In this document: positions 434 through 20,274 of the stretch, one piece after another
Layout of the letters: every line of letters starts with the position of its first letter
Position numbering within the stretch: the first letter of the stretch is position 1
Assembly: GCA_034520565.1 (NCBI GenBank)
Contig: JAXHNL010000002.1
Coordinates: forward strand, 512,001-576,000
DNA: 64,000 bases
DNA from: Halodesulfurarchaeum sp.
Lineage (GTDB): Archaea > Halobacteriota > Halobacteria > Halobacteriales > Halobacteriaceae
Direction: 5' to 3'
The notes under the pieces: generated by a model
Database searches by the model: none
The model's input: the letters and a program-made list of their open reading frames with translations, nothing else
Told to the model about the DNA's origin: nothing
Translations under genes and position numbers: made by a program

Positions 434-475
434 GGCGAACAGGTGACACTCGTCCGGCCCGGAACGGTGTGTCAC
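434..475. repeat. Dispersed hairpin repeat, copy 1 (GGCGAACAGGTGACAC-N19-GTGTCAC)
   Basis: 16 bp identical to 44576-44591, with the same GTGACAC/GTGTCAC inverted stem. Confidence 0.6.
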
Positions 476-580
476 GCTTCCGCCTCGTTCGTTCCGGGTT
501 GGTGATCGAGGGATGGGCGACGCTGGTCCGGGCTTCTGATTTAAAATTCCGTGCCGGAGTCGTCCTCGAAGTGGTGCCGG

Positions 581-1072: not shown

Positions 1073-1193
1073 AACCGGTTTTCGGGAGGCGACCGGATAA
1101 ATCGGTGGATCTCAGTTGGATCGGGGGTGACACTGCACCCGGCCGGACACGGTTAGACATTTACCGCTCGACCGGCCACCTACAGGTAACACG

Positions 1194-3804: not shown

Positions 3805-4770
3805 TCACTCCGGGGGTTCGGGTGGGGCCCCGTCCTCGGTCGCGGGCGCGAAAGCGTCGATGAATTCCTCGACGTCGGGCTCGTGAACGGTCACCGCGAC
3901 TTCGATGGCCCCCAGCTCGTCGGGGGTCCCCACGGAGAAGTTGATTACGTCCTCCAGTGCCGCCTGCTTTTTCAGTTCGAACGAGAAGCCCCGGGGCCCG
4001 GCCCGCTCGAAGAAGACGTCCCGGGCGGTGTCGAGGATCCGCTGCTCGAAGAGCCGCTGCCGGAAGTGCCCGAGGTCGTGAGTCGTGGCCACCACTCGAT
4101 CGTCTCGGGTTTCGACCTCGCTCTCGGGGAAGAGGGTCGTAATCGCCTCGAGGACCCGCTTGGCTACCTCGGTCTCCTTCACCGGCGCTTCGACCGTCGC
4201 CTCGATCCGGCGAACGGGACCCTCGATCGTGTCTCCCAGGAGGTCGCTCACCGCCTCGCGGTAGGCCGCAAGGGAGGACGCGTTCTCGATTTCCACGTCG
4301 GCGTCGGCCATCGCCTCGCGGAGTCCGAACCCGAGTTCGCGCTCGTCGCGGTCGGCGAGGGTCTCCCCACCCGCCTCGGCCCCGGAGTCACGATTGCGCA
4401 CCGCGAGCCGCTCGGCCCGCAGGTCGTCGGGCGCGGTGATCGCGACGAGCGTGAACTCCTTGCCGAAGGCGTCCTCGAAGCGCTCGACCTCGACCCCGGA
4501 GCGGATCCCGTCGATCACCACCGCGTCGGAATCGCTTCGGGCCTCCCGGATCGCTGGCAGGGCGCGGTCGGCGATGGCCGCGAGCCCCTCCTCCTCGCGG
4601 AGGGCCTGGGCCACCCGCCCGTGGTCGGCGGCGGGGTCGAGGCCGCGTTCTTCGGTCTCCTGGCGGACGATGTCCCCCATCGTGACGACGGGGAGGCCGA
4701 GTTCGCGGGCCACCGTCGCGGCTTCGCTCTTGCCGCTGCCGGGAAGGCCGACGATGCCGATGACAGTCAT
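3805..4770 (-). CDS. Fusion of UPF0200 P-loop kinase (CoaE-like) and UPF0201/DUF54 putative RNA-binding domain
   Basis: N-terminal GLPGSGKS, MGDIVR, IDGIRS, DRDERELGFG; C-terminal APVKETE...QRILDTAR...LKKQAA...ELGAIEV. Confidence 0.8.
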   Translation of the reverse strand: MTVIGIVGLPGSGKSEAATVARELGLPVVTMGDIVRQETEERGLDPAADHGRVAQALREEEGLAAIADRALPAIREARSDSDAVVIDGIRSGVEVERFEDAFGKEFTLVAITAPDDLRAERLAVRNRDSGAEAGGETLADRDERELGFGLREAMADADVEIENASSLAAYREAVSDLLGDTIEGPVRRIEATVEAPVKETEVAKRVLEAITTLFPESEVETRDDRVVATTHDLGHFRQRLFEQRILDTARDVFFERAGPRGFSFELKKQAALEDVINFSVGTPDELGAIEVAVTVHEPDVEEFIDAFAPATEDGAPPEPPE

Positions 4771-4871
4771 TGGGTGGCCCTATCGGCCGTGCGGTCTTTT
4801 CGGTTCCGTTCTCGGGTCGCCTCGGCGTCGGGTGTAACACATAAGACGGCGGGAGCCAAATTCCCGGCCGA

Positions 4872-4976
4872 GGGCACGTAGCTCAGTCCGGACAGAGCGT
4901 CGGACTTCTATCCCGCACAGTGTTGCTGTGGGGGGAAGACATCCGACGGTCGCGGGTTCGAATCCCGTCGTGCCCG
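4872..4976 (+). tRNA. tRNA-Arg(TCT) with 30-nt intron (4911-4940) at the canonical 37/38 position
   Basis: GGGCACG/CGTGCCC acceptor stem, TAGCTCAGTCCGGACAGAGC D-arm, TCGGA/TCCGA anticodon stem, anticodon TCT at 4907-4909, GGTTCGAATCC T-arm; CTTC/GAAG central helix of a bulge-helix-bulge splice motif. Confidence 0.93.
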
Positions 4977-4977
4977 T
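4955..4977 (+). repeat. attL core (tRNA-Arg 3' end)
   Basis: Exact repeat at 14003-14025. Confidence 0.9.
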
Positions 4978-5249
4978 GAGTTTCCTTTCGGTTTCCGACC
5001 CGTACAGAGAACGGACGGAGAGACGCCCAAACAACCGGATTTGGGCAGTTCTCAAGAATCACTAAGCCCCCTCGATCTGGAGTTCGTTCAGCAACTTTGT
5101 GGCCCCCTTCGCCCTCACTCGGTTTTCAGATTCGTCGAAAGGGCAAACCTCGGTCTTCATTCTGCCACACTCGGCCAGCCACCCACCCACCTCGCCCGGA
5201 CCAAAGCGGGGCCCACCTGGCCCCCGACGGTCCGCGGCGTTGTTCCTCG

Positions 5250-5452
5250 AGCTTTCACAGCCGACGAAAGCGAGGGAGAGGGAGATCGCGCACGCCCGGC
5301 AGCGCAGCGACCGTTGGGAGCGAGCAGCCCGGAACGGTCCGCGGGCGCCAACCGCGGACCGCACGGGATCGACCGGCCGGAAGCGGGCCCCCTCCCACGG
5401 GGGCCCGACCCGGAAGCCCGAGCGCATCCCCCGAGCCCGAAGGGCGAGGGGG
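5250..5452. promoter_or_regulatory. Hairpin cluster upstream of rep; probable rolling-circle origin region (dso/sso)
   Basis: Perfect stems CGGTCCGCGG/CCGCGGACCG (5335-5361) and CGGGCCCCC/GGGGGCCCG (5384-5407), plus CCCCC-GA-GCCC-GAA-GGGC-GA-GGGGG (5428-5452). Confidence 0.55.
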
Positions 5453-5494
5453 TTCCCGTCTGGCTGTGCGGTTTGCGGTGCGGTGGTGGTCGGT

Positions 5495-6844
5495 ATGCGT
5501 GAAGCAAACCGATCAGTCGAATCAGCCTCCGCATCGGAAAGCGCAAAACTAGATCAGTTCGCCTCTCGGCCTACCAAGACTAACTGTACAACCCCAGAAT
5601 CACGCTCTCTCCCGGCCGGTGAGAGCAGTTGGGAAGGATACTGGTGGAAACAGAAAAACGCACTCGTCGATCAGTTCGTCGAGGAGTATCCCAATCGGGC
5701 AGCCCGGCCAATTTCGGTTAGGGGCGGAGAACTTCTCCGCGAGGAGTGCACGCTCTCTCGACCGGAGGGAGAAGGACCCGTCTCAAAGTCGTGGTCGTCC
5801 GTTATGAACGAATACCTCAAGTGGTACAACGGATATCGAGATTCCCATCTGGTTTTTCGAGACCCCGACGGAAACCGAGTTCGTACCCAAATGGAAAACG
5901 CGCACATGCCCGAGTACGGCGACAAGTATTATGCCAAGTTGAAAGCCCTAGAGCGGCAGATCGCCTCCGAATACGATGATCTTCACATCGCGATGCTCAC
6001 CTTCACTGGCTCGACGAAGAACGGAAACGGCGGCTGGCGGGCTGTGTCAGACCACCTCCGGGACGTGATCGACAGTTGGCGGCCAGATCGCGGTCGAGGC
6101 GTCTATCACGCCCTTCGCGATTCACTCGAATGCCAAGAATGGGAATACGCCCTTGTCGTCGAGAAACACCAGAGTGGCTACGGGCACGTGCATTGTGCCG
6201 TGTTCGTCGACGGGGAGGTCGATGAGTCGGATTTTCATCCCGCTATTGATGCCCACCTTCGAACCTGCAACATCGCCCATCGGGATGCTCACAACTACTT
6301 TGCAGAGGATGAAACAACACGGCCCATTTCGGTGAGTAGTGTCGATACGGATCTCGATCCAAACCGGGGCGACGTGGACAAGATCACGAACGTTGGCACC
6401 TATATCGGCGAGTACATCGGCTCATACGGAGAACCATTGTTTGATCGGAGCATCGAAGAGCTAGCGTTTCGGGCAGCAGTATGGGCGACTGGGACCCAGC
6501 TCGTTCGGTTCAGTACGGGTGCAAATGAACTCATTCGGGAAGAACTTGACCGGGAACAAACCGAGTTAAAAGTGCCCGAGCTGGTCCAAAAACCTGAGTT
6601 CGATCCAGAAGCCGAAGATCCAGGAGAGACGGTTGAAGGTTCGCCTTTTGACGTGGTGAATAAAGGATGGTCACTCGAAGGCGTTGGAAGAGTGGATTCA
6701 GAGGGGGAGACAATATACGACGTTCAAAATAGTGGAGTGCAGTTTGTCGAAATAGCGGATTCTTCTCATCTAGATCCAATTAATTCTCAACCCCCGGATA
6801 GGCCACAACCGAGGGCTAAAGTTAGAGATTTAGAGAGCTTCTAA
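5495..6844 (+). CDS. rep: Rolling-circle replication initiator (HUH endonuclease), haloarchaeal plasmid/pleolipovirus type
   Basis: Motif 1 MLTFTG, motif 2 GYGHVHCAVF (HUH), motif 3 YIGEYIG; start placed at ATG 5495 within ORF 5099..6844. Confidence 0.85.
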   Translation: MREANRSVESASASESAKLDQFASRPTKTNCTTPESRSLPAGESSWEGYWWKQKNALVDQFVEEYPNRAARPISVRGGELLREECTLSRPEGEGPVSKSWSSVMNEYLKWYNGYRDSHLVFRDPDGNRVRTQMENAHMPEYGDKYYAKLKALERQIASEYDDLHIAMLTFTGSTKNGNGGWRAVSDHLRDVIDSWRPDRGRGVYHALRDSLECQEWEYALVVEKHQSGYGHVHCAVFVDGEVDESDFHPAIDAHLRTCNIAHRDAHNYFAEDETTRPISVSSVDTDLDPNRGDVDKITNVGTYIGEYIGSYGEPLFDRSIEELAFRAAVWATGTQLVRFSTGANELIREELDREQTELKVPELVQKPEFDPEAEDPGETVEGSPFDVVNKGWSLEGVGRVDSEGETIYDVQNSGVQFVEIADSSHLDPINSQPPDRPQPRAKVRDLESF

Positions 6845-7088
6845 CCAACCAGAATTTGTGAGATGTGTCGGATTATTAATTGCTAATTTTCAATAGTCGT
6901 CAAACTTGCAATGATTTATTTTCTTCATAGGGGTTTGGTTAAATTATTAAAATTCAACGAGACTACTACAGAGCATCAGATGCCATTATGAGATTTATTT
7001 TTCTACATGACAAGGCGATATAAACGTATCAATTTTTCCGGGAAAACCCTATTTAATTGTCCTAATAGAGTGTAGACAGGGTAAGAAG

Positions 7089-7439
7089 ATGAGTGTGCCA
7101 AAGAGGAAGACAAAAAAATCCAATTCTATTTTTAAAGAGAGTGTAGAAAAGGAACACGAATGGTTGGAAAGTTTGGGAGTGGAAGAACTATCAGACATTC
7201 TTCAGAGCCATGCGGGTGAGCTCTCCCTTCGGTTTGCATCTGAACTGAATGGTTACTATGTTGTGGCAAATGAGGATAACGAAGGTTTGCAAGTGATTTA
7301 TTCCGGTTTAAGTGGGCCGGAACACAAACCAGTGAAATTGTCGAAAGCTAATTTGCGGAGACTTCAATCAAAATCAGAGTTGATCAGATTCGTCCCATAT
7401 GAAGAGTCTCCATTTGATTCATTTGTAATTAAAAAATAA
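7089..7439 (+). CDS. Hypothetical protein (116 aa)
   Basis: AT-rich ORF with upstream TATA-like sequence; no recognisable motif. Confidence 0.55.
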   Translation: MSVPKRKTKKSNSIFKESVEKEHEWLESLGVEELSDILQSHAGELSLRFASELNGYYVVANEDNEGLQVIYSGLSGPEHKPVKLSKANLRRLQSKSELIRFVPYEESPFDSFVIKK

Positions 7440-7470
7440 TTGGCGCGCTATACCTCTTTAGGAGGGAGTT

Positions 7471-7832
7471 CTACCAGAATTCCCAAGTGGGTTGGCTAAT
7501 TGCGAGGGTCCGGTCAGCCAGGGTTTCCTCGATGAGACTGCGAATCTCACTTGTGGAAAGAGACTTGGCCTTCTTTTCCAAGTGCGGAGCGTGATGCCGC
7601 ACTATTCGAATAAGGTTCTCTCGAGAACCTCCCATAACCTCCAATTCGCCGTTAATCACCACAGAGGGAATTCGGTTAGGAACTTTTTCCCCCTGGATTC
7701 TCCCATTGGAAGTCATCTCTTTCGCATTTTGACGGACGTGTCCATCGCTGTAACCGGTTCCATCTGCGATATCGGCCACGCGCGAGCGTCCGTTTTTGAA
7801 AGGTGGGCTTGAATAGCATCTTTGACGGTCAT
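7471..7832 (-). pseudogene. Winged-HTH protein with -1 frameshift in an A5 run (real or sequencing error)
   Basis: SD GGAGGTGA (7839-7846) then ATG 7832 reads MTVKDAIQAHLSK; adding one A at 7793-7797 continues NGRSRVADIADGTGYSDGHVRQNAKEM (HTH). Confidence 0.6.
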
Positions 7833-8163
7833 TTGTTATCACCTCCATTGACGACCGTTTCTCTGCTCACAGCAGCAAGTTTCAAGTATTGGACCTCCGA
7901 AGGGAGATTTGTATCCCCAATAGATCCCATTGCCGTTGAGGCAGAGAGGCAAAACTGCAAGCCTTTCTCCTGGACCGAGAATGGCTGAGGCCGATGCGGT
8001 CGTGAGTGGTGATTTTCATCGCGTGTTATCACCTAGCGCCTAGTAAATGGTGCCCCCACTTAAGGGTTCCCCGTGGTAACGTTACTGTGTGAATGTATGA
8101 TACAGTGAATTAGTAATTATACTATAGAAAAAGATATCCGCATTTGGTGCTATACTTTTAGTT

Positions 8164-8931
8164 ATGCCTTACCAAGTGCCCGACCGCGTTCACCTAATGC
8201 CGGTGGGGTTCGAGGAAGACAGAATATTCAAAGTTGCAGAAGATCTGAAGGCTGATAAAGTCGTATTAATAGCAAATAGGGGTGATTCGGATGACGCTCG
8301 CAAACACCTAGAGAAGGCAAAGCAAAAATTGATCGATATGGGTTATGATCCATTGGTAAAAGAGTGTGATATCTTTGATTTATATGAATCATTGGGCCTT
8401 ATTGCGAATATAATTGCCCAGTTTTCTGATGATGAAGTATACGTAAATGTCTCAACGGGTAGTAAGGTAACCGCGATTGCAGGGATGATTGCAGCTATGA
8501 TGACCGGAGCAAATGCCTACTATGCACGAGCTAAAGAATATAGATCGGATGACGTACCCCGTGGAATAGATACCATTTTCCAGCTGCCAAATTATCCTAT
8601 TGAATCCCCTGAGAAAAAGCATGTGTTAGTCCTAAAATACTTAGAAAAAAATGGAGAAATAGATGTTACTAAAAGTGATCTGATTGACTTTGCGGAAAAT
8701 AGTGGCCTCAAGTTCATTTCAGATAAAGATGTGAGTAGAAAGGCGAAGTACCGGCTCTTAGACAACCATATCATTTCCCCACTACTTAATCGGGGGTATA
8801 TTCGGATAGAGGAAAAGGGACGTAACCGACTAGTTAGTATTTCAAATGACGGGAGGGATTTTGTAGAGGCCTTTGGTTTCATGTCAAAAACATACGAGGA
8901 AAATGAGAAGAGCGCTATAACTGCTAGATAG
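8164..8931 (+). CDS. CARF-like Rossmann domain + wHTH regulator (DUF6293/Csa3-like)
   Basis: VHLMPVGFEEDRI...ADKVVLI...VYVNVSTGSKVTAIAGM (CARF motifs) and C-terminal wHTH (KAKYRLLDNHIISPLLNRGYIRIEEKGRNRLVSIS). Confidence 0.8.
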   Translation: MPYQVPDRVHLMPVGFEEDRIFKVAEDLKADKVVLIANRGDSDDARKHLEKAKQKLIDMGYDPLVKECDIFDLYESLGLIANIIAQFSDDEVYVNVSTGSKVTAIAGMIAAMMTGANAYYARAKEYRSDDVPRGIDTIFQLPNYPIESPEKKHVLVLKYLEKNGEIDVTKSDLIDFAENSGLKFISDKDVSRKAKYRLLDNHIISPLLNRGYIRIEEKGRNRLVSISNDGRDFVEAFGFMSKTYEENEKSAITAR

Positions 8932-9093
8932 ATGAAAAGCGCATTATGGGATGGTTTTGAGTTTTTCTGAGAACCCTACTCCAAAAGGTTATTGTTCAAT
9001 ATTATGTAAAAGAATTTGATTTGGGTAAATGAAGTATGATCTGATGGGAGGCTGGACCGTTCGACCATTAACATTATGCAGTTTGGTTAGGAC

Positions 9094-12023
9094 ATGTATT
9101 CCATGGCTTCACCCTCCCCCGAAGCACGTTTTCATTCCAAGTTATTTGATAAATTAGACGACTATATTTATGAAAATGATACACCGTTCCATAATGTAAG
9201 CATTGAAGACCGTATGGAAGACGGGGGGCGAGCAGACATATTTGTTGAATCGAATCTAACAGAAAGTTTTGTTATAGAGGTCAAAAGGGACGATAAAAAT
9301 CCATTAAAGAAGGAGTTCATTACTCAAGCTAGAGATTACGCTAAAAGTAAGCAAGTTAGGTTCTTTGCCATTTGCAATTCAAATGATTATTTTTTATTTG
9401 ATTATCGGGGCGAGGTTAATGTAACCGATATTGATTTCCACTACCTAGATCTTCGCCAAGGGAATATCCGAGATCAAACGTTTGGTGGCCTGATCCCGAA
9501 GATGCTTCAAGCGGTACAATACCTTTCGAAGCATGACCAGCTTCCCAAGCAAAAGACACGCAAACAAATTGTTGGCGTAATTCGGTCATTCCATACCTCA
9601 ATTTGGCCCACCTACAAAGAATTGGCTAGGGAAGCATTTGGAAGAAACGCAGAATTCACCGAATACTTTGAAAATTGGGTAGCGGAAAACAACTATAGTC
9701 AAAGAGACAAGGATGAACAATTCGAAATTGCGGCTAAACAACATGCCTACCTCTTAGGTAATAAAATTCTATTCTATGACCTTATAAGGGACCGTACTCC
9801 AAGTGATATTCAAACAAAAAGTGGCTATAAACTAAATTCGCTTTACCAAACATCTTCCGGCAAAAATATAGATATTGAAGGTATAAAACCCAGAATTGAA
9901 CAGCAATTCAATCGTATTATAGAGGAGATTGATTACGAACCTGTTTTTAACGATTCTGATACTATATTTAGTTCCTTCCCTGAAAACCGAAAGACTCAGA
10001 GAGCTATCCAGACTCTTTTATCGAACTTTGAATCGAAACGCCTAGAAGAAGTGAACGAAGATCTCCTGGGTGAACTTTACCAAGAATTGATTCCTAAAGA
10101 TGAACGCCGGAATTTGGGGCAATTTTATACTCCGCCGTCAATTGCAGAAGCCCTAGTGAGATGGGCTATTGATTCATCGGATCAAGATGAGTTGCCTCGC
10201 ATTTTAGATCCAGCATCTGGGAGCGGGACATTTCCGGTTGAGGTATATGAGTATTTGCATCAGATATTTCCAGAAGCAAATCACCAAGAATTGATAGACT
10301 CGATATTTGCAGTTGACATTAACAAATTCCCCATTCATCTTACTTCCTTTAATCTTGCAATCCGAAATATTACCTCTGAGACAGATCAGATCCATACTAA
10401 AAACGGTTCATTCTTTGATGTATCTCCCACAGCAGAGACTCTAAATGCATTCACTAACAGCGGGCAAGAATTCACTGAAAATTTTGATGCAGTGGTGGGA
10501 AATCCGCCTTACATCTTCCATCAAAATTTGTTCCCTGATAAAGAGCATTTCCGCCATCATCTGACAAATTACCAAGACGAAAATGGGGAATCGCCATATT
10601 ATGACGGTGAAAAGAAATTTGATACCTATACTGACGCATATATTTACTTTGTGACTCACGCATTTCAATTTCTCAAAGAGGGGGAAAACTAGCATTCATA
10701 ATCTCTGCGAAGTGGTTAGATGTTGAATATGGATTCCCATTTCAGCAATTTTTGTTCGATAACGCCAAAATACAGTCAATTATTACATTTAACTCCCGTT
10801 CGTTCGAAGATGCATTAGTAAATACATCACTACTTTTAATTGAGAAGTGTTCAGATGCATCAGAGAGAAGAGAGACAGTAACCGACTTTATTCGCATTAA
10901 GAAGCAAACCCCTCCAAAGGACCTAGTAAGTACAATTGAACATGAGCGTACAATTCCTGAAGGAAAACCATACAAATTTGAATCACGTAGCGGATATCGT
11001 GTTTTTTCGCGTTCTCAAAGTGAACTAGAAAAAGAGGGACCACGGAAATTGGGATATTATCATTCTGCGCCCCGTCCCATTATTGACTTAATTGACAGTG
11101 GTTTATTCAAACCAATGAGTGACCTGCCATTCTCCCGTGTTCGTCGGGGTTACATGACTGGTGCTAATTCCTTCTTTATTTTAGATGAGGACGATGTCGC
11201 ACAATGGGGAATTGATCATAGATTTTTGAAGCCAGCAATCAAGAGTGTGAAAAATCTCCATGAGCTTAGAACTCCAGAGGATGGAATTGGTCTATATATT
11301 CTTGATCTTCGTGAATTTATAGAAGATACTCGCCATATCTGGAAAAATAGTGACAAAGATGAGTCGTTTGAAAATGCTGTGAAAGAGCGATTAAAGGAAG
11401 AAGGATACGAGAATACATATCAGTATATCAGATACGGTGAATCAGATGGGATTGATGAGATGTACAATCCTAGTCGGCGAAAGGTATGGTTCCAGCTTCC
11501 TGATTTGGTTGCTCCAGACGTACTCCACCCAGTTTTCTATAATGAAGATCTTTATACAATTAAGAACGACGGCGGATTAGTCCCATCGAATGCGATATTA
11601 TGTGTATGGTTTGAGGAATATCAAGACGTGATGAGAGGGATAATGAATTCAACATTATACAAAGTCATTCTAGAGGTTTGGGGCCGAAAGGAGGGAGGTG
11701 GGGCTCTTCAATTTCTTCCTGATGAGATAAAGTCAATTCCTATCCCAGACCCACGGTCGCTTGATGAAACAGCAAAAGAAACCGTAATTAAAAACGCTGA
11801 AAAACTTGAGTTTGATAGCGATGTTGGCCAAGATGATCTGGACAAGGCCATTCTTGATGGATACGATATACCCATTTCAGTTGACGATCTTCAACAGATG
11901 CAATCGCTAATGACAAAACAGAGGGTCGAAGGAGCAGAGGATACAACAATTCTTGTTCAGGATTTGGAGGAATTCGATGAATATGATCTCGAAGGGTTCA
12001 TAAAAAAGCAAAATGGGGGCTGA
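9094..12023 (+). CDS. Type IIG-like restriction-modification enzyme (PD-(D/E)xK nuclease + N6-adenine MTase + TRD), split by a -1 frameshift at ~10684
   Basis: RADIF...IEVK nuclease, LGQFYTP, ILDPASGSGTF (motif I), VVGNPPY (motif IV); GAG GGG GAA AAC TAG plus one G gives EGGKLAFIISAKWLDVEYG, which runs into ORF 10752..12023; ~976 aa if repaired. Confidence 0.85.
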
Positions 12024-12109
12024 GGGAACATTGTCAGTATCGTATGACTGACTTGGACATAATGTTGGCCTCAATCAGATTCTGCAATCCATGACTTTAC
12101 ATTCATTTT

Positions 12110-12532
12110 TTATTCCCATTCCATTTTTTCAGCCTCGTCAGCACTCGGGACTTTGAATTGATACCAATTCTCGGAGCGATCTCGAATTGGGTTATCCGCT
12201 ATTTCATTGGAGACCTTCTCAATCATTCTTGCTTTTCCTTCATCTGTGAGTTGGTAATAGCCCCGTTCCACTTTTTTAACGATACCCCCGGCTTCGAGTG
12301 TGTTTAGTCTCCGAGAAACAGCTCCCCTCGACCGGTCTATGTTTTTTGCGATCACTGATGGGCCTAACATTAAATCAGGTGATGCGAGCAAATCGACGAT
12401 TTCATAATCTAATTCCGTGAGCCAATCCGGAGGGTGGAGATCTTCGTCATAAAACTTGTCATCATCTATGTCAGCCCGGTATTTGTCCGGAATGACGTTT
12501 TCTGGGGGTTCGTATTCATTGTCCTCGGCCAT
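12110..12532 (-). CDS. Winged-HTH repressor (phiH1-repressor-like), divergent from the integrase
   Basis: WLTELDYEIVDLL...PSVIAKNIDRSRGAVSRRLNTLEAGGIVKKVERGYYQLTDEG. Confidence 0.8.
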   Translation of the reverse strand: MAEDNEYEPPENVIPDKYRADIDDDKFYDEDLHPPDWLTELDYEIVDLLASPDLMLGPSVIAKNIDRSRGAVSRRLNTLEAGGIVKKVERGYYQLTDEGKARMIEKVSNEIADNPIRDRSENWYQFKVPSADEAEKMEWE

Positions 12533-12793
12533 GAGTCCAGAAAAACTACCCATTACAAAAAAGGTACCGCATATATTGCATTACAAATAGTACGGTTACA
12601 AATTCATGATAAAGAATAAGTGACCCCCTGTTTAACCATTATTCGTCACGGCCCACTCGGAGCGTGACCCCGTCCAAAGAGACACGCCCCGAATCTCGCC
12701 GTGGCATCCAAGGTGGATGCATGCCCAAATACACACTTCAACACTGTAAGACTGCTGAAGGCGCGTACAGAATCAGAGCAGGTGCTATCCTCG

Positions 12794-13843
12794 ATGGGTG
12801 ACTTAGAACCCATCCCGCCTGCTGAGGCGGTCCAAATGTTTCACGAGGCTATGATCGACGAGCACGCGGAGTCCACTCGTCGAAGCGAAAAACATCGACT
12901 CAAAGCCTTCGTACAATTCTGCGATGAACACGGCATCGAGGACCTGACCGAATTAACGGGACGAGACCTCTATCTCTACCGGAGCTGGCGGAGAGAGGGC
13001 CAGGGCGATGACCGGGAACCGATAAAAACAGTCACGCTGAAAAGTCAGTTAGCGTCACTCCGTCGGTTCCTCCGCTTTGCTGCTGATATTGATGCTGTTC
13101 AAGCAACGCTCTATGAACAGGTTTCGCTGCCAGTCATGCGAAACGGTGAGGACGTCTCGGAATCAACTTTAGAGGCAGATCGGGCTCTCGAAATCCTGGA
13201 CTATCTCGAGCACGCACAACCCGCTTCGCGTGACCACATTATCGTTTTGCTCCTCTGGAAAACCGGGGCCAGAACCGGCGCAATTCGTGGGCTCGATCTC
13301 CGGGACTTGGATCTCGAAGGAACTCACCCACGCGTGTCCGGGCCGGCAATTCACTTCGTCCACAGACCCGATACGGGAACCCCGCTTAAGAACCAAGACA
13401 AGGGTACGCGGTGGAATCGAATCAGCGGGGTGACGGCCCGGTACATCTCTGATTACATCGAATACAACCGGCCCAACGTCACCGACGAACACGGGCGAGA
13501 ACCCCTCATAGCCACTCAGTACGGACGGCCGGCCGGGAATACACTCCGCACCACCCTGTATCGAGTGACCCGGCCCTGCTGGCGAAACGAACCGTGCCCC
13601 CACGATCGGGATACTGAGACTTGTGAGGCCACCCATTTGGATCACGCCAGCAAGTGCCCCTCCGCTCGATCACCCCACGATCTCCGAAGTGGGAGAGTGA
13701 CCTACTATCGTCGAGAAGACGTCCCCCGCCGAGTCGTCAAAGATCGGCTCAATGCCAGCGAAGACATTCTAGATCGGCATTATGACCGGCGTTCGGACCG
13801 AGAACAGGCAGATCAGCGAAGCGACTACCTCCCAGACCTATAA
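12794..13843 (+). CDS. int: Tyrosine integrase, SNJ2/pleolipovirus-like family
   Basis: TGARTGAIRGLD, HRPDTGTPLKN, Cys/His insert RPC...CPH...C...KCPS, SPHDLRSG, ILDRHYD; ends ~50 bp before the att copy. Confidence 0.92.
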   Translation: MGDLEPIPPAEAVQMFHEAMIDEHAESTRRSEKHRLKAFVQFCDEHGIEDLTELTGRDLYLYRSWRREGQGDDREPIKTVTLKSQLASLRRFLRFAADIDAVQATLYEQVSLPVMRNGEDVSESTLEADRALEILDYLEHAQPASRDHIIVLLLWKTGARTGAIRGLDLRDLDLEGTHPRVSGPAIHFVHRPDTGTPLKNQDKGTRWNRISGVTARYISDYIEYNRPNVTDEHGREPLIATQYGRPAGNTLRTTLYRVTRPCWRNEPCPHDRDTETCEATHLDHASKCPSARSPHDLRSGRVTYYRREDVPRRVVKDRLNASEDILDRHYDRRSDREQADQRSDYLPDL

Positions 13844-13891
13844 TAATGCCATGTGCCAACACTTGCAGGCCTAATTCCGAGATAGCGGGAC

Positions 13892-14025
13892 CCCGTCGTG
13901 CCCGTACAGCGAGGAGCGGAGCGACGAGCGAACCGGCGCGCATGGGATTTGAGCCCTGGAAGGCGCGCGCAACGAACGGAGTGAGTGAGCACGGCTTCCT
14001 CTGGTTCGAATCCCGTCGTGCCCGT
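13892..14025 (+). repeat. Right-end module 1: 14-bp att copy + hairpin element + 23-bp att copy
   Basis: CCCGTCGTGCCCGT at 13892 and 14012; GGGATTTGAGCC...GGTTCGAATCCC stem between them. Confidence 0.85.
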
Positions 14026-14267
14026 TCGGAGACAATCGTTTTCGACCATTCACAGAAAACCGTGAGAGCCAAGAAGACGGGTATTCTGGCCGTTCTCAAA
14101 GAACGTTTAGCCAACGGAATTTGGTGTCCATTCAGCATCTGAACGTCCCCTCATAAACAAATGGCCCATCATGCAGGGAGAACGAATCTGTTATTATAAC
14201 TAGGTTATACTCTATCCATAAAATTAGAAAAAGTGTTATCGGCAATACCTCTGAGAATATTTATAGT

Positions 14268-15632
14268 ATGGACAAATCGTTGCTCGCCACCTCATCAAAA
14301 ACTGTTCGAGAATCCGCTAAAGAGCTTGGTAAAATAGTAGAAACTGAGGAGTTGTATCTGCCACAAAATTCGCCAGTTTTCTATTTTTTGGATAGGTTTG
14401 GGTCGGGCTCTGTTAATGAATTTATTGAGAAATGGCCAAATTCGGAGTTTGAACCTATGGGGATGGCAATTGAAACTCCCGAAATCATTACATATTTGAT
14501 TAAAATTCATAGAAATCATGGAGCTTTCAATGGGAAACAGAAGAGGATAATTCAAGATATGATTGACAAAGTAATCCAAAATCAAAACGTCCACGGGCAG
14601 ATGTCAAATTACCATTCTAAACAGCTTAGAGCACTAATTTTATTCGATCCAAAATCTGAACCAGCAATAAATGGAGTGAGTCATTTGACATCAGAGGTTA
14701 TTCCCAATACAGCCTATACAAACAGATCACGTAGAATCCAAGAGTTAGCAAACGGAATTATTTCTCTTTGCGAATTAGATTATTACACATATGAGAATGA
14801 GATTGAGGAGGCAGCGTCACAAATTCGAGATTTAATTGATGACGGGCCTAAAAATGATGATCTTGAGAATATATATGACCCAAGCAATCTTGCAATAGCC
14901 CTTTCCAAACTCCAAAATTATAGGTTCGAATTTGAACAAAAATTGTCGGAAGTACTTATGAGAGAATTATCAAATAGAGATGACTTAAAAATTGGTTTGG
15001 ATGATATTGATGGACTATTTAGTCCCTACATAATCATTGGGAAGTCTTTAGTTGGCCTCTTGGCCCTTGGAAAAGGACCCAAAGCCCCGATTTATCAAAA
15101 TGATTGGGAAAAAGAACTCGAAAGGCAACGATTGGCCCGTTCTAAGGCCTCATTTGTTTCCACTCTCCCCGCGAGCGAGTTACAGTCACGTCGAATAGAG
15201 ATATATGAGAAGGCCTATTCTATCATTAATTCAGTTCAAAGCGAGTTGCGAATTTCCACACTAATGATGGATATGTTTTACAATGAAATTCTCGACCTTA
15301 TTGAGCAAGATTCTGATGTTCAAGTTCGCATACTTGCCAGACGAGAAGGACCAAAAGGGGAACGAAGGAGGATGAAAGAAGCCGTGATGAAGGAACTAGT
15401 TAAAGCAGGTGAATCGGAAATCGTTCGAGGAGACCATTTACTCCATAGTCGGATGATTATTGGTGATGACTCTGAACTGCTCGTTTCATCTGCAGATTTG
15501 ACACGAGATCGGCTATACGATGAATTTAATGCAGGGATCTATACTCGTGACCCAGACGCGGTAAATGAAGCTATTGAGTATTTTGACAATATTTGGAATC
15601 AAGGCAAATCGCTCGATGTGGAAAAGTATTAG
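14268..15632 (+). CDS. Protein with helical N-terminal region and C-terminal PLD-like (HKD-variant) domain
   Basis: ELRIST...VQVRILAR...LHSRMIIGDDSELLVSSADLT...EFNAGIYTRDPDAVNEAIEYFDNIW. Confidence 0.75.
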   Translation: MDKSLLATSSKTVRESAKELGKIVETEELYLPQNSPVFYFLDRFGSGSVNEFIEKWPNSEFEPMGMAIETPEIITYLIKIHRNHGAFNGKQKRIIQDMIDKVIQNQNVHGQMSNYHSKQLRALILFDPKSEPAINGVSHLTSEVIPNTAYTNRSRRIQELANGIISLCELDYYTYENEIEEAASQIRDLIDDGPKNDDLENIYDPSNLAIALSKLQNYRFEFEQKLSEVLMRELSNRDDLKIGLDDIDGLFSPYIIIGKSLVGLLALGKGPKAPIYQNDWEKELERQRLARSKASFVSTLPASELQSRRIEIYEKAYSIINSVQSELRISTLMMDMFYNEILDLIEQDSDVQVRILARREGPKGERRRMKEAVMKELVKAGESEIVRGDHLLHSRMIIGDDSELLVSSADLTRDRLYDEFNAGIYTRDPDAVNEAIEYFDNIWNQGKSLDVEKY

Positions 15633-16018
15633 ACTCTGTTGAAAATTTTTTTGATCAGTGGTATTTTGAGAACGGTCTCCTGAATACACCGCTCGTATTC
15701 ACCAATCGCATTCTCGGGAATCCCCCGGCACATCTTAATTTTTGTAGCATGGTCTTGTTGGCCAGGAAGCGGTCCAGAAAGTCTTGGGAAGGGAGTATTA
15801 GTTGATTCGGACTGAGCCCCCGCACTTTTGCTGTGCTATTTGAGAAGGTGAGGACGATACTAGTAGACAAGTGTTGCTCTCTTCGTGAAGTTTCTTACAG
15901 TGAAATGTGTCATGTCCGCCTGAGGGAGGTCAGTTAAATCATGGTAATGGGGCACATACCATTATGTCGAAAAGACATCCCTAAAGATGTCATCAACATT
16001 TAACATACGTTTGATAAT

Positions 16019-17578
16019 TTATTGTCGAATTATCTCATTCTGTAATGACCCGGGACTATTTCCAGTAATTCTATTTCTCATCTCAACTGCCTGGGACTCA
16101 GTCATATTAGATATCAAATCGGCTACAATCCTTGCCCGTAAGGTACAATCTTCGCTATCTATATTCTTAATTCGCTCCCGGTACGGTTCCATAATTAATG
16201 AGGTGTCTACAGATTCTGGGTCCGCTTCGTTGTACAATTCTTCGAATAGCACGTTAATAATTTCCTTTTGACCGGCTTGCTGAGCCGAAAGGGTAGGATT
16301 GCTTATCACGTAATAGAAGGTCAATTCCTTCAAAATTTCAATCTCTTTCATTAATTCTTCATCAACGTCCAACGTGGGCAACCCATCAACTGAATGGCCA
16401 ATTACACCAACATTACGTTCCGAAGGTTCCCGCTCCGTTGCTTCAATGTACCATCCTATTAAGGAGGATATTAACTTATTGAGCTGATTCCTTTCCCTTT
16501 GAGTACCCTCATATGGAGTAAATAGCGAGTCCCCAATAAATGCGAAATCTGTTAGCTTTATTAGAAAATCCAATACTTCAGGAAGAGTTGCTTCAACACC
16601 TGATTTATCAGAAACATATTCTGCAAAATCAAATACTTCCATATTATGTGATTTAGAGTGCTCCACAATTAGTCGATCATAATCCGGTAATTCATCAATT
16701 CCAGCCTCATCTGGTAGTTGTTTGAATAGCTCTTTTGCTTCCCGAAGCAGTTGATCAAGCGGAAGAAGACCACTTCTATAGAAATCCTCCACGTCGTGTA
16801 TCGCATAGGTCAAATCATCCGCAAAGTCCATGACTTCTGCTTCAATAACTTTATTGCGTCCACCGTCTGTCCCTGCCCTTGCAAAGTTAAAGTGGCTATT
16901 TTCGGAAGGGTAGTACCCCCATTTGTCATCAGTATCTTTGTCAGAAGCGATGTCTTCAGCATCTCGCTTCCACGGGTATTTTAGCATAGCATTTAAAGTA
17001 GCCCTAGTCAAATCCATCCCACATATACCGGGGCGATGCGTTCCCAGTTTAGTCACGGCCCGGAATGATTGGGCATTACCCTCAAATCCCTGGATGTTAT
17101 TATTCTCAATATCATCTGAATCTTCCTGGCCAGCTTGTTCTTTTGATTTTTGTCGGATTTTCAAATCTAGTAAGTTCTCAGTCTCGTGGCCAAACGGGGG
17201 ATGGCCAATATCATGGGCCAAGCAAGCAGCTTCCACTACATCTTCATTCAGATATTGCCCAAGGTTCTCAAATTCGCCACCATAATAATCTATTAATAAC
17301 TCAGCCAATCTACGGCCAACTTGGGCGACTTTCAAGGAGTGTGTGAGTCGGTCATGGTAAAGGTAGGATTCTCCAGTCCTAGCAACTTGTGTGACGTCTT
17401 TCAACCGCCTGAACTCACGGCTGTAGAGGATTCGGTCGCGATCTCGTTCAAAGGGAGTTCGCTGGTCACTAGGGTCAATGTTAATTGCTGCATCAGCTTC
17501 TAATTGTGAATCGTACTCTTCCTCCAAATTTTGGTCTAGTGCTGAAGGACGGCGCTCTCGAGGAAAATTTGAAGGCAT
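16019..17578 (-). CDS. dgt: dGTP triphosphohydrolase (dGTPase, HD superfamily)
   Basis: RTPFERDRDRILYSREFRRLKDVTQV, HDRLTHSLKVAQVGR, AHDIGHPPFGH, FEGNAQSFR, KYPW, ADDLTYAIHDVED, RIVADLISNMTE. Confidence 0.92.
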   Translation of the reverse strand: MPSNFPRERRPSALDQNLEEEYDSQLEADAAINIDPSDQRTPFERDRDRILYSREFRRLKDVTQVARTGESYLYHDRLTHSLKVAQVGRRLAELLIDYYGGEFENLGQYLNEDVVEAACLAHDIGHPPFGHETENLLDLKIRQKSKEQAGQEDSDDIENNNIQGFEGNAQSFRAVTKLGTHRPGICGMDLTRATLNAMLKYPWKRDAEDIASDKDTDDKWGYYPSENSHFNFARAGTDGGRNKVIEAEVMDFADDLTYAIHDVEDFYRSGLLPLDQLLREAKELFKQLPDEAGIDELPDYDRLIVEHSKSHNMEVFDFAEYVSDKSGVEATLPEVLDFLIKLTDFAFIGDSLFTPYEGTQRERNQLNKLISSLIGWYIEATEREPSERNVGVIGHSVDGLPTLDVDEELMKEIEILKELTFYYVISNPTLSAQQAGQKEIINVLFEELYNEADPESVDTSLIMEPYRERIKNIDSEDCTLRARIVADLISNMTESQAVEMRNRITGNSPGSLQNEIIRQ

Positions 17579-17589
17579 TCCGAAAATGC

Positions 17590-17817
17590 CTAAGCTGAGA
17601 CCGATGCGTGGCTTGCCAATTTATACTCAAAGCCAGGGCTGGTTCCAATTTGGCCTTCATCAATCAGTTCTTGCAGAATATCTTTTACATCTTCCCTTCC
17701 TTCAGCGGATGTATTTTTCATCAAATGGTCTAGGGTCACTGGGCCATCACTTTCTATCAAGGCTTCAAATATTTCCGTCCGGAGAGAGTCTTCGCTTCCG
17801 CCACTATTTCGAATCAT
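17590..17817 (-). CDS. Small winged-helix protein (75 aa), 11 nt upstream of the dGTPase
   Basis: LRTEIFEALIESDGPVTLDHL...EDVKDILQELIDEGQIGTSPGFEYKL fits a wHTH pattern. Confidence 0.7.
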   Translation of the reverse strand: MIRNSGGSEDSLRTEIFEALIESDGPVTLDHLMKNTSAEGREDVKDILQELIDEGQIGTSPGFEYKLASHASVSA

Positions 17818-18082
17818 ACCTTGAGGATAGATTGGGTTCTACTTAGTTCTGATGTCAAATGGGGTACTTTGAATGCCAAATAATGGTACTAATCTAGACC
17901 GGATTATAGCCACGATTGCACCCAATTAACGAGACGTAATCATGAGGTTTTAAGTCGGTATATATGGTCTCCAAAATACATCACAAAGGAACCCCCCCCC
18001 AAGAGATTCAAAATCGGGAGATGTATGAAAATATCACCAAGCCACCTTACAAAATTGTAGGGTTGTGTCTATCTGGGCGAAA

Positions 18083-18350
18083 TTATAGCCAGAGGATCTT
18101 CTCAGCTTCGCGACTTTCCACCCCTTCCCCGTGTTTCCCAAAGTAGAGCCGGTGAAGAGTCGGGTAACCCTCTCACCCGCTCCATTGCATCACTACGCTC
18201 GGTAGAACGCCGGCCTCAAGAGTGAGGTTTCCCTAGGTCCGGTGGGGATCGTGCGGCCCGAGGTACCGCCAGCCTCGATAGGGTCCTGCTTCTCAAGTTC
18301 CTCCGCAACGGTGGCAACCCATCGGCGAATCGTCCTCGTCGTGTCGTCAA
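18083..18350 (-). pseudogene. C-terminal remnant of a XerC-like haloarchaeal tyrosine recombinase
   Basis: Across frames: TTRTIRRWVATVAEELE / RGWRYLGPHDPHRT*GNLTLEAGVLPSVVMQWSG*EGYPTLHRLYFG / REAEKILWL*; stop codons where Trp is expected. Confidence 0.7.
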
Positions 18351-18453
18351 AGACCGGCACAATGCCAGCGAAAACATTCTTGACCGGCATTATGAACGGC
18401 GTTCGGACCGCGAACAGGCTGATCAGCGGAGCGACTACCTCCCAGACCTACAA
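18335..18453 (+). pseudogene. 3' remnant of an SNJ2-like integrase
   Basis: PRRVVKDRHNASENILDRHYERRSDREQADQRSDYLPDL, nearly identical to the C-terminus of the integrase at 12794-13843. Confidence 0.9.
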
Positions 18454-18503
18454 CAATGACATGTGCCAACACTTGCAGCGCAAATTCCGAGATAGCTGAA
18501 CCC

Positions 18504-18622
18504 CCCATCGTGCCCGCTTCTGCGACGAACGGAGGTGAGGAGCGAAGCGGCGCATGGGATTTGAGCCCTGGAAGAGGAGCGAGCGCAGCGAGCGAGTCTT
18601 CCTTCGGTTCGAATCCCTTCGT
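18504..18622 (+). repeat. Right-end module 2: degenerate att + hairpin element + partial att
   Basis: CCCATCGTGCCCG (18504-18516), CGCATGGGATTTGAGCCCTGGAAG, GGTTCGAATCCCTTCGT (18606-18622). Confidence 0.8.
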
Positions 18623-18823: not shown

Positions 18824-19690
18824 ATGAAGCGAACGATAAGATTTGCTCGGCTTTCATTTGAAAGAAAGTTAAGTCACTATGAAAGCGACGAAAACCCCAT
18901 AGAACGGCGAAAGAAGGCGTTATTAGATGTGATTGATTTTGATTTGGATGTCAACCGCCTTCTTCTTGAGACCGATCTAAAAATGATACGGGATAGAGGA
19001 GATTGGTATTTTGGTGATGTGGAAACAGAAGAGTCCGTAATTTCAGGATGGATAGGTAAAGAAAAAGAAGAGATAGAGAAGCACGTTGATGAAGATAAAA
19101 AAGGATTCAAAGAGACGGAAGAAAGCAAGGCAGATGTGGCATTTTTCGTAATTGACGTAGCCAATTCTGTAATGGCCTATGAGTTTAGATCAAATGTTGG
19201 AGAAAAAGCACCATACCGAATTCTGGAAGGTGTATTTAATGTCTACCACAAAGGTGAAGAAGAACTCTCTATCTCTCCAATAGTTGATAAAGAGGAAGTC
19301 CGATCAGAGCTTGATAGGATTTCTAGAGTAACTCAGGTGAAGTTCCAAGGTCTAAAGCCAACAAATCCAGATCGAACTGATTTATCAAAGCCAATGGATG
19401 AGTTTCTACAAGAAGGAGGCATTGACCGCTTATTTTTCAATGGCAAAAGTGATGATTCGACAAGAGGAATAAATTTGGAGGTGCCACTTTTGAATGGGGG
19501 TCTTAGCTTAGCCGAAGAAGGATATGGTAGTGCTACGATTAGTGGGAAGATGAAATCAGGAGAAGACATAGTCGTTACAACGGATGAAAAACAAATAGAG
19601 TCAGAAGTTGATGAGGCGAAAACCGACAGAATGTATAGAAAAAGACTAATAAATGAAATCGGAGAAACACTGGAGGATCTCGAAAATTGA
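18824..19690 (+). CDS. Soluble hypothetical protein, possibly DUF4747-like; candidate defence component
   Basis: 288 aa; ISPIVDKEEVRSELDRISRVTQVKFQGLKPTNPD and SLAEEGYGSATISGK patterns; TGATG-coupled to the downstream TM gene. Family call tentative. Confidence 0.7.
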   Translation: MKRTIRFARLSFERKLSHYESDENPIERRKKALLDVIDFDLDVNRLLLETDLKMIRDRGDWYFGDVETEESVISGWIGKEKEEIEKHVDEDKKGFKETEESKADVAFFVIDVANSVMAYEFRSNVGEKAPYRILEGVFNVYHKGEEELSISPIVDKEEVRSELDRISRVTQVKFQGLKPTNPDRTDLSKPMDEFLQEGGIDRLFFNGKSDDSTRGINLEVPLLNGGLSLAEEGYGSATISGKMKSGEDIVVTTDEKQIESEVDEAKTDRMYRKRLINEIGETLEDLEN

Positions 19691-20274
19691 TGGATAACTC
19701 TAATATGTTTTATCGGTTAAAGGAATTCGGATTTAGAAATATTATCTTGAGTTACGATACCCTTGGAGGGGGTATCTCGTTTTTTATAGTATACATATAT
19801 CTTGATGGGAGCGTGCCTCGGGAAATTGGATCAGACATACTGCCAACTATCGCGGTAGTATCGTCCACGTTGTTTGCCATCGTTCTTACTGGATTTACTA
19901 TAATCACATCTTTTACAGACCGTTACTTCCTTTATGCCTGGAAAGAAGTGGGCGACTTTGATGGAGTTGTTACCCTCTTTCAGTATAATCTCGCCTTGCC
20001 AATAATTGTTATTTTGGCATCTGTATCACTTATAATAAATTATAATGGGGTCGGGATGATGATCTTGATCTCTCTATTCGTATACATGATCTTGTCCTTA
20101 CTTAATTTAGTGGGATTTATTTCCAAGTACTCATTGCAAAGAGCAGAATTCGTTAAACAACAAATGGAGAAATCTGCTAAACAATCACCAAAAAACCAGG
20201 ATGATGATCCAACGTTGTCAACAAAACAGCTTAAAAAAGTCAAAAACTTATTAACTGAATACCCAGATGAATGA
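19690..20274 (+). CDS. Integral membrane protein (~4 TM) with charged C-terminal tail
   Basis: Four hydrophobic stretches; ATG overlaps the upstream stop codon. Confidence 0.75.
   Translation: MDNSNMFYRLKEFGFRNIILSYDTLGGGISFFIVYIYLDGSVPREIGSDILPTIAVVSSTLFAIVLTGFTIITSFTDRYFLYAWKEVGDFDGVVTLFQYNLALPIIVILASVSLIINYNGVGMMILISLFVYMILSLLNLVGFISKYSLQRAEFVKQQMEKSAKQSPKNQDDDPTLSTKQLKKVKNLLTEYPDE

Follow-up and report, generated by a model that had tools for sequence, protein, structure and literature searches.

The window analysed here is a stretch of 64,000 nucleotides (nt) from Halodesulfurarchaeum sp. (contig JAXHNL010000002.1, positions 512,001 to 576,000). Its minus strand carries a gene pair in an AT-rich island: a small gene for a winged-helix protein, followed by a gene for a deoxynucleoside triphosphate (dNTP) triphosphohydrolase of the Dgt family. 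Related pairs occur in other Halobacteria and in bacterial and viral contigs. The pair may be a mobile two-gene cassette for nucleotide depletion, with the small protein as an antitoxin-like negative controller. This reading has, in our view, an even chance of being right.

The gene pair

The pair comprises the following features, in order of their coordinates.

16019..17578, minus strand: enzyme gene, second in the operon; 519 amino acids (aa), HD and HD_assoc domains, Dgt-family dNTP triphosphohydrolase
17579..17589, minus strand: intergenic spacer of 11 nt, read from the sequence
17590..17817, minus strand: small gene, first in the operon; 75-aa acidic winged-helix protein
17841..17850, minus strand: TATA-like element AGAACTAAGT, located 24-33 nt ahead of the small gene's ATG; probable promoter of the operon

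The spacer of 11 nt leaves no room for a separate promoter of the enzyme gene. The element at 17841..17850 is presumably an archaeal TATA box. Words resembling TTAAGT or TATAAGT are present about 29-36 nt before the start of the small gene in most related loci (about 24-36 nt with the window included), and across the loci such words were found upstream of the small gene only. Both genes are probably co-transcribed as a single transcript. The arrangement has the layout of a type II toxin-antitoxin-like module, in which a small first gene is tightly coupled to the gene of a potentially toxic enzyme and the pair is conserved.

The enzyme matches the Pfam models HD (41.8 bits) and HD_assoc (PF13286; 49.1 bits, cut-off 22.2) as well as TIGR01353, the dGTP triphosphohydrolase subfamily (265 bits, cut-off 152.35). 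Sequence matches in the PDB are the dGTP triphosphohydrolases of E. coli, Pseudomonas, Thermus and Leeuwenhoekiella, with E values of 6e-33 to 5e-19. The window enzyme was aligned with 23 haloarchaeal homologues. Invariant in these 24 sequences are H80, H122-D123, H126, H131, E134, D254-D255, Y258, H261-D262 and D265, together with a GHPPFGH..E loop, the presumed catalytic loop. The HD-motif residues are assumed to be metal ligands, by analogy with E. coli Dgt. Judged by its sequence, the enzyme is likely to be a dNTPase. An N-terminal block, M..FPR.RRPS.L, is common to the window enzyme and its closest homologues; because this block is conserved, the ATG start yielding 519 aa is favoured over the later-starting 502-aa gene call of the database. 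The enzyme is the sole Dgt homologue in the genome of the window.

An earlier sequence-only reading of this stretch had described a full-length dGTPase with intact HD motifs and, 11 nt upstream, a 75-aa winged helix-turn-helix (wHTH) gene. Both statements hold: Pfam, TIGR01353 and the invariant residues agree on the enzyme, the coordinates of the open reading frames (ORFs) and the winged-helix model on the small gene.

Conservation in Halobacteria

With a threshold of E <=1e-20, the enzyme was found in 17 of 401 sampled Halobacteria genomes, distributed over 14 of 90 genera, and 16 haloarchaeal loci were taken besides the window. A tblastn search with the 75-aa protein gave a match directly upstream of the enzyme in 5 of the 16 loci (E 5e-18 to 1.8). 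The ORF listing revealed a same-strand upstream ORF of 64-99 aa in 13 loci, plus a second copy in genome G376. The 14 upstream small proteins align with a common pattern. A homologous small gene lies directly upstream in 15 of the 16 assessable genomes; G268 is not assessable because its contig ends 94 nt upstream of the enzyme. The small gene and the enzyme gene are separated by 6-21 nt in 13 of 14 loci; in the remaining locus the gap measures 47 nt.

The alignments were built from ORFs chosen by position, and the independent results are those of the leave-out profile, the cross-family comparison and genome G005. The leave-out profile, built on 12 upstream ORFs from other genomes and excluding both the window copy and its closest relative, finds the small-gene frame of the window at E 4.4e-9 among 779 frames, with a next best of 0.2. 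In G005, which is in no profile, the small gene was found at E 8e-11 directly upstream of a truncated enzyme gene. Over the 401 genomes the full profile reaches E <=1e-15 at pair loci only, a result expected by construction because those sequences built the profile. A phylum-wide search outside Halobacteria gave distant N-terminal matches only (E ~1e-31) in 5 genomes, none with a match to the small protein nearby.

The sequence-only reading had proposed a two-gene operon in a mobile island and named co-occurrence of the wHTH gene among homologues as a check. The 15 of 16 genomes, the leave-out profile and the narrow gaps bear the pairing out, and the island features described below agree.

Two genomes show variants of the arrangement. 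In G376, two cassettes with identical small genes are located on one 249-kb contig (C2; L112 and L122); the enzyme gene is intact in one of them and split in the other. The cassette with the intact gene adjoins a cyclase of a cyclic-oligonucleotide-based anti-phage signalling system (CBASS), a 2TM effector and a TGT-like gene. On contig C13 of G058 (L138), a small gene very like that of G084 (1483-1722, minus strand) is followed by an unknown 269-aa gene (455-1264, minus strand) in place of a dGTPase gene; beyond it the contig continues into a gene that by eye may be DUF262-like. This locus hints that the small regulator can pair with other cargo.

Phylogeny of the enzyme

Searches with the enzyme alignment yielded at least 80 bacterial loci in genome contigs (among the matches listed) and 42 loci in viral contigs, the latter with <=38% identity and none in the haloarchaeal clade. 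A search of viral contigs with the single enzyme protein gave no relative. The 48 rows of an IQ-TREE tree came from the window, from 14 haloarchaeal loci, from 25 bacterial loci out of the 80 and from 8 viral-contig loci out of the 42. Omitted were G096, the disrupted copy in G376 and the truncated G005 enzyme, as well as L013 and L038, whose matched ranges contain stops.

All 15 haloarchaeal rows group together (99/98 support). This group is placed inside a 31-row clade (100/97) together with a patchy set of alpha- and gammaproteobacterial, cyanobacterial, Paceibacterota and Sericytochromatia rows and six viral-contig rows. The clade is apart from a 15-row actinobacterial clade; four members of the latter were scanned and pass NF002829 at 537-595 bits. 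The haloarchaeal enzyme tree does not follow host taxonomy: the window enzyme pairs with that of G060, a different family (100/100), and not with that of G010, a member of the same genus.

The window enzyme misses the housekeeping-type models NF002829 (actinobacterial; 253 bits, cut-off 385) and NF003429 (E. coli type; 140 bits, cut-off 405). On the housekeeping side, the phylogeny that the sequence-only reading had put forward as a check came out in its favour. With a best equivalog score of 253/385 bits, presence in 17/401 genomes and a nearest relative in another family, the enzyme does not group with vertically inherited Dgt and belongs to a separate, patchy clade that is incongruent with taxonomy.

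The pair in bacteria and viral contigs

A same-strand ORF of 60-78 aa that ends <=77 nt from the aligned enzyme region was found in 12 of the 16 sister-clade loci (L003, L004, L006, L009, L010, L012 and L153-L158). The 12 bacterial and viral small proteins align and have the same predicted winged-helix topology (pLDDT, the predicted local distance difference test, 87.5). A comparison of the bacterial and the haloarchaeal small-protein profiles with hhalign gave a probability of 94.5% and an E value of 7.7e-8 over 64 columns. At E <=0.01, the bacterial hidden Markov model (HMM) detected its own 12 members only, in a set of 10,887 frames from the 80 bacterial loci (among the matches listed) and 4,899 from the 42 viral ones. 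Applied to the window, the same model has the small-gene frame as its sole match among 779 frames (E 0.008); it matches the G005 small protein at E 8e-5. The haloarchaeal profile reached a best E value of 0.15 in the 80 bacterial loci listed and of 0.1 in the 42 viral loci, and its weak matches immediately before the enzyme gene in L012, L155 and L157 pointed to the bacterial family. None of the 74 other bacterial loci among the matches listed, mostly Actinomycetota, has an upstream small gene.

The sequence-only reading had described an archaeal version of the dGTPase with a dedicated partner. The restriction to archaea has to be given up, as 12 of 16 sister loci from bacteria and viral contigs have a related upstream winged-helix gene. 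Their surroundings are as follows.

L003: P4-type integrase and Type ISP restriction enzyme
L004: serine recombinase
L156 and L158: integrases
L154: tape measure protein and Schlafen-like gene
L155: terminase and lysozyme
L157: portal and coat proteins
L009, L010 and L012: apparently chromosomal

The gene after the dGTPase in L012 (Tabrizicola; 7283-8215, minus strand) codes for an inosine-uridine nucleoside hydrolase (354 bits), a possible metabolic connection to the nucleoside that the enzyme would release.

The small protein

In the AlphaFold2 model, the window small protein has the element order H-b-H-H-b-b of a winged helix, with a mean pLDDT of 80.4. Helices span residues 6-22, 29-35 and 41-54, and a hairpin residues 57-67. 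The best Pfam match is DUF5805 with 22.1 bits, below the gathering score of 28.5; four of the 14 family members touch this model, and a literature search found no mention of it. The protein carries a net charge of -9 over 75 aa, and the family median is -0.11 per residue. Helix 3 of the window copy is net negative, as read from the sequence.

A word-based homologue search returned the window's own protein only. This reflects limited sensitivity and not orphan status, because later profiles found homologues. Against 1.84 billion cluster representatives the profile gave 551 matches at E <=1e-3 and 36 at E <=1e-10. Many of them are acidic stand-alone proteins of 58-95 aa that share the pattern, and others are long and contain several winged-helix repeats. 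Five proteins of 333-2306 aa (P0122, P0123, P0129, P0135 and P0139) contain 5-12 tandem stretches matching the small winged-helix profile. No fusion of the domain to the enzyme was present in 120 enzyme homologues (best E 0.13).

Enzyme and small protein diverged in parallel. Their pairwise identities correlate with r 0.57, a value reached by 0 of 2000 permutations, and three reciprocal nearest pairs agree between the two proteins. The enzymes share a mean identity of 0.47, the small proteins one of 0.24. Such co-divergence could result from co-inheritance alone. A direct contact was addressed by the multimer prediction proposed in the sequence-only reading. Complex predictions with both alignments scored 0.26, 0.48 and 0.78, and the best of three controls scored 0.00. 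The partner had a pLDDT of >=73, and contacts agreed to >=59% between runs. The median of 0.48 is in favour of binding when set against the controls, but the calibration makes passes at <=0.60 doubtful. In the calibration, 58 of 80 solved complexes passed the mark, as did 2 of 110 mismatched pairs; the range at or below 0.60 held 7 of those 80 solved complexes and both passing mismatches, so a pass there is more often wrong than right unless binding is already likely. The models thus lend weak support, a modest push, to a direct contact of the small protein with the enzyme. The sequence-only reading had offered an autorepressor, a labile inhibitor or a nucleic-acid sensor as roles for the partner, and this result bears on binding alone.

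The small protein might instead be an ordinary transcription factor that makes no protein contact and autoregulates or represses the operon. Nucleotides or oligomerisation would then switch the enzyme, as in other Dgt proteins, and a defensive role of the cassette would still be possible. We consider this explanation possible, if doubtful. Fold and profile matches are DNA-binding winged helices: the sequence profile detects many generic ones of IclR, MarR, Lrp and TrmB type, and the ESM Atlas matches are generic IclR/MarR-type winged helices only. On its exposed side, helix 3 has retained basic or polar residues at positions i/i+4; K or R occupies the K45 column in 9 of 14 sequences and the Q49 column in 7 of 14, where the other sequences have N, Q, H or S. 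The small gene is the first gene and carries the sole promoter-like element, and allosteric and oligomeric control of a dGTPase is reported in the available text of PMC13519002. Several points speak against a mere transcription factor. A crude scan gave no shared operator or palindrome, the small protein is strongly acidic with a net negative helix 3 in the window copy, and the complex prediction leans, weakly, to contact. Strict adjacency across two domains of life despite a mean identity of 24% also suggests more than a generic regulator.

The fold searches raise a further alternative. The best Foldseek match, and the sole one with E <=1e-3, is the Z-alpha domain of ZBP1 (2lnb, E 6.5e-4). 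The best VIA match is again ZBP1 Z-alpha (9j89), with Z 11.6, a root mean square deviation of 1.2 A over 64 residues and a target-normalised TM-score of 0.90. PKZ and viral Z-alpha domains are further matches. The small protein could accordingly be compared with the sensing domains of ZBP1 and ADAR1 and would then sense an unusual form of viral DNA or RNA and activate the dNTPase. Size and topology fit this idea, and a wing motif P-x-[FW]-x-[YF] is conserved, with F or W kept in 12 of 14 sequences. However, TtgV (IclR-type; Z 11.2), the Rpa2 winged helix (10.4) and IscR (10.3) are tied with ZBP1 within about 1 Z unit, alongside ADAR1 Z-alpha (10.2), and the sequence profile matches Z-alpha at E 0.004 only, amid many generic winged helices. 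We take an Asn and a Tyr in helix 3 and a Trp in the wing to be hallmarks of Z-alpha domains. In a by-eye correspondence, the helix-3 residues that contact Z-DNA are not conserved; these columns are occupied by K/R and by Q/R/N/K, and Tyr appears in a single sequence of 14. A nucleic-acid sensor of this type is very unlikely.

The island in the window

The GC content of about 0.65-0.69 drops to 0.38-0.49 at about 6-20 kilobases (kb), except for the integrase segment at 13-14 kb (0.58). The pair at 16-18 kb has 0.40-0.45, compared with 0.64-0.69 in the flanks and 65% in the chromosome. The following features define the island and the surroundings of the pair.

4872..4976, plus strand: intron-bearing tRNA gene (105 nt; Rfam RF00005, 60.1 bits); integration target and left end of the island
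12701-13843: full integrase with both domains (Pfam)
14003..14024, plus strand: att-like exact copy of the tRNA 3' end, GGTTCGAATCCCGTCGTGCCCG (repeat families D3 and D4); left border of the sub-element
14268..15632, plus strand: gene of a PLD-like nuclease, 454 aa, convergent with the enzyme gene (Pfam PLDc_2, 37.7 bits, C-terminal)
18334..18504, plus strand: remnant of the integrase 3' end with downstream sequence; 171-nt direct repeat of 13724-13894, 88% identity
18604..18622, plus strand: degenerate att-like copy of the tRNA 3' end (repeat family D3, alignment); right border of the sub-element

Since 13724-13894 overlaps the 3' end of the integrase gene, an integrase remnant flanks the pair at 18334-18504. 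The att-like repeats and the integrase copy place the pair in a decayed sub-element of 4.6 kb (about 14.0-18.6 kb), together with the PLD-like nuclease gene. The AT-rich setting between att and integrase remnants, as claimed from the sequence alone, is thus confirmed by the GC profile, the repeats of the tRNA end and the 171-nt repeat. The 454-aa PLD protein has weak DrmC-like matches. No PLD gene adjoins the pair in the other loci; it is neighbouring cargo outside the conserved pair. A split integrase of the SSV type was considered as the origin of the repeat and rejected, as the integrase at 12701-13843 keeps both domains.

As a whole, the window has the pair in a defence and mobile-island location, a tRNA-integrated AT-rich island with Rep, integrase, CARF protein, methylase and PLD nuclease.

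The left part of the island resembles an integrated plasmid- or provirus-like element. A putative Rep protein (DUF1424, 178 bits; 5099-6844, plus strand) is encoded directly after the tRNA gene. A 255-aa protein (8164-8931, plus strand) combines a CARF-like Rossmann domain (HFX_2341_N/Csa3_N) with a winged helix and matches PADLOC CARF3 with 271 bits. Two ORFs on the plus strand (9094-10692 and 10752-12023; 532 and 423 aa) jointly resemble a type IIG/Eco57I-like methylase (PADLOC mad2, MTase_II). They are 59 nt apart and the second has no Pfam match, as in a broken gene or a two-part enzyme. The left element also carries a winged-helix regulator. The tRNA gene at 4872-4976 was missed by ARAGORN, whose sole report is a tRNA-Ala at 62211-62297. 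To the right of the degenerate att copy, before the GC-rich flank begins, two overlapping AT-rich ORFs (18824-19690 and 19687-20274, plus strand; 288 and 195 aa) have no Pfam, NCBIfam or PADLOC match. The 195-aa product is hydrophobic and membrane-like by eye, and the two may be another cargo pair of unknown kind.

Neighbourhoods of the haloarchaeal loci

Within 6.5 kb of the haloarchaeal loci 203 ORFs were called. The Pfam scan covered 149 + 21 ORFs. The PADLOC scan covered 135 ORFs: those without a clear housekeeping Pfam match, every ORF of L120-L122, and a small number from L138, L139 and the window. An integrase or recombinase is encoded in 9 of 17 loci (L107, L108, L110, L112, L113, L118, L121, L122 and the window). 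Clear defence systems are present in 6 of 17 loci.

L107: Hma/DUF1156-DUF499
L109: type IIG/DrmMI
L111: methylases
L112: CBASS
L119 (G080:C1, ~4597-17359): bacteriophage exclusion (BREX) system; the pair lies between PglX and BrxC/BrxB, beside an HVO_2833-type regulator
Window: CARF protein and methylase

Weak PADLOC matches were obtained in L108, L110 and L115. The GC content of the enzyme gene is below that of its locus in all 16 loci (0.44-0.59 vs 0.52-0.67). The best explanation is that the cassette moves between haloarchaea on integrative elements. The integrases and the defence systems in these neighbourhoods extend the defence and mobile setting noted for the window to other genomes.

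A proposed nucleotide-depletion cassette and its control

The cassette looks like a regulated form of a known antiviral strategy. In the proposed mechanism, the promoter before the small gene would drive one transcript that encodes the winged-helix protein and then the Dgt/SAMHD1-type dNTP triphosphohydrolase. The cassette would travel on haloarchaeal integrative elements, with related cassettes in bacterial islands and prophages. Destruction of dGTP or other dNTPs by the enzyme would prevent the replication of an invading virus, as nucleotide-depletion immunity or superinfection exclusion. In uninfected cells the small protein would keep the enzyme harmless, either by repressing the operon, by binding the enzyme or by both. 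Its loss or displacement on infection would free the enzyme. Of these parts of the model, the defence role is the most likely one for the pair, and the negative control is a proposal.

Precedents exist. According to the available part of the Tal preprint (10.1101/2021.04.26.441389), six dGTPases were cloned singly and four protected. T7 mutants escaping Sp-dGTPase map, in the same source, to genes that modify the host RNA polymerase. For AvcID, the accessible text of PMC10511110 describes a nucleotide-depleting toxin whose labile RNA antitoxin decays once the phage has stopped host transcription, which releases the toxin.

A number of observations weigh against a defensive cassette under negative control. 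The enzyme has 222 bits with the NCBIfam model of anti-phage dGTPases, NF041026, below the cut-off of 400, and four other haloarchaeal enzymes have 194-236 bits. No NCBIfam equivalog cut-off is passed by the window enzyme or the other haloarchaeal enzymes scanned. The PADLOC dGTPase model matches the window enzyme with 299 bits and haloarchaeal enzymes with 266-311 bits. It was rejected as evidence for defence and is non-discriminating, because conserved actinobacterial Dgt that pass NF002829 score higher (365-392 bits). Near 8 of 17 loci there is no PADLOC match (L113, L114, L116, L117, L118, L120, L121 and L122), and L114, L116 and L120 sit among housekeeping genes. The partner is not obligatory: G096 has an intact enzyme gene without it, and 4 of the 16 sister-clade loci (L005, L007, L008 and L019) have no upstream small ORF. 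Nor is the small-protein family exclusive to the enzyme, as G058 (1.7e-9) and G053 (9e-9) encode members without the enzyme, before unrelated unknown genes. The small protein consists of a winged helix only and lacks the additional tail with which type II antitoxins commonly bind their toxins. A simple palindrome scan, a crude test, found no palindromic operator in the 220 nt upstream in the window; among the other 13 loci, 5 have no palindrome and 8 have palindromes that share neither sequence nor position. The calibration of the complex prediction belongs to the same side. Finally, dGTPases cloned alone protected E. coli (10.1101/2021.04.26.441389, available part).

A more far-reaching version of the cassette is a two-component nucleotide-depletion immune family across Archaea, Bacteria and proviruses. 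A Z-alpha-sized winged helix would act directly on a SAMHD1-like dNTPase as a switch, either as a labile antitoxin responding to the shut-off of the host or by sensing nucleic acid of the invader. This version is unlikely. If true, it would supply the missing trigger mechanism for dGTPase defence.

There is little chance that the pair is non-defensive, be it a regulated housekeeping or stress enzyme of the dNTP pool on mobile DNA or an addiction module stabilising the island. The 8 of 17 loci without a defence neighbour, and the location of some loci among tRNA synthetase or replication-origin genes, fit such a role. In the available text of Tal et al. (10.1101/2021.04.26.441389), 58 of 110 close Sp-dGTPase homologues are near defence genes vs 10% of the distant ones, the enrichment is seen at >=45% identity, and housekeeping roles are raised. 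But the presence of the enzyme in 17 of 401 Halobacteria genomes and as the sole Dgt in the window's genome argues that it is not a core function, and the deviant GC content everywhere, the prophage and integrase contexts in bacteria and a tree incongruent with taxonomy are at odds with a housekeeping pair. An addiction-only role is hard to tell from defence by computation.

The proposed nucleotide-depletion cassette bears on the question of how defensive dGTPases stay silent and then switch on in infection; the escape mutants, as described in the available part of the preprint, hint indirectly at transcription shut-off. A clade with a dedicated partner gives a direct experimental handle on dGTPase control. 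If protection were shown, the cassette would add an experimentally tested nucleotide-depletion defence for archaea (a literature search found none for haloarchaea), and the same cassette would be shared with bacterial prophages. If the small protein were merely a repressor, the gain would be a modest one in annotation, a named regulator family for a mobile dGTPase clade.

Comparison with known systems

A literature search found no description of a wHTH-dGTPase pair; most subscription journals are outside its reach and an earlier mention is possible. The available text of a paper on an octameric dGTPase (PMC13519002, Nat Commun 2026) contains no mention of a helix-turn-helix, operon, upstream gene or clade.

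The anti-phage Sp-dGTPase is among the closest known systems. It shares the enzyme family (HD and HD_assoc, TIGR01353), the mobile or defence-island location and, by analogy with the available part of the preprint (10.1101/2021.04.26.441389), the expected mechanism of dNTP depletion. The known systems were tested as single genes, as far as that part shows, whereas here a dedicated small winged-helix gene is located in the operon. The window clade is distinct, with haloarchaeal inserts and an N-terminal extension, and stays below the NF041026 cut-off. AvcID would resemble the working model as a two-gene system of nucleotide depletion in which a labile partner holds the enzyme until transcription is shut off. 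In contrast to the triphosphohydrolase and winged-helix protein of the window, the AvcID enzyme is a deoxycytidylate deaminase and its antitoxin is an RNA (type III). Housekeeping Dgt (NF002829, NF003429) have a homologous catalytic core. The window enzyme differs from them by scores below the cut-offs, a separate clade and a patchy distribution, and the upstream small gene is missing from all of the 74 other bacterial loci among the matches listed, mostly Actinomycetota.

For the small protein, the Pfam family DUF5805, haloarchaeal small proteins of unknown function, is a weak best match below the gathering score. The Z-alpha domains of ZBP1, ADAR1, PKZ and viral E3L/ORF112 are alike in size and topology and give the best superposition, but there is no specific sequence relationship, and ordinary bacterial regulators match equally.

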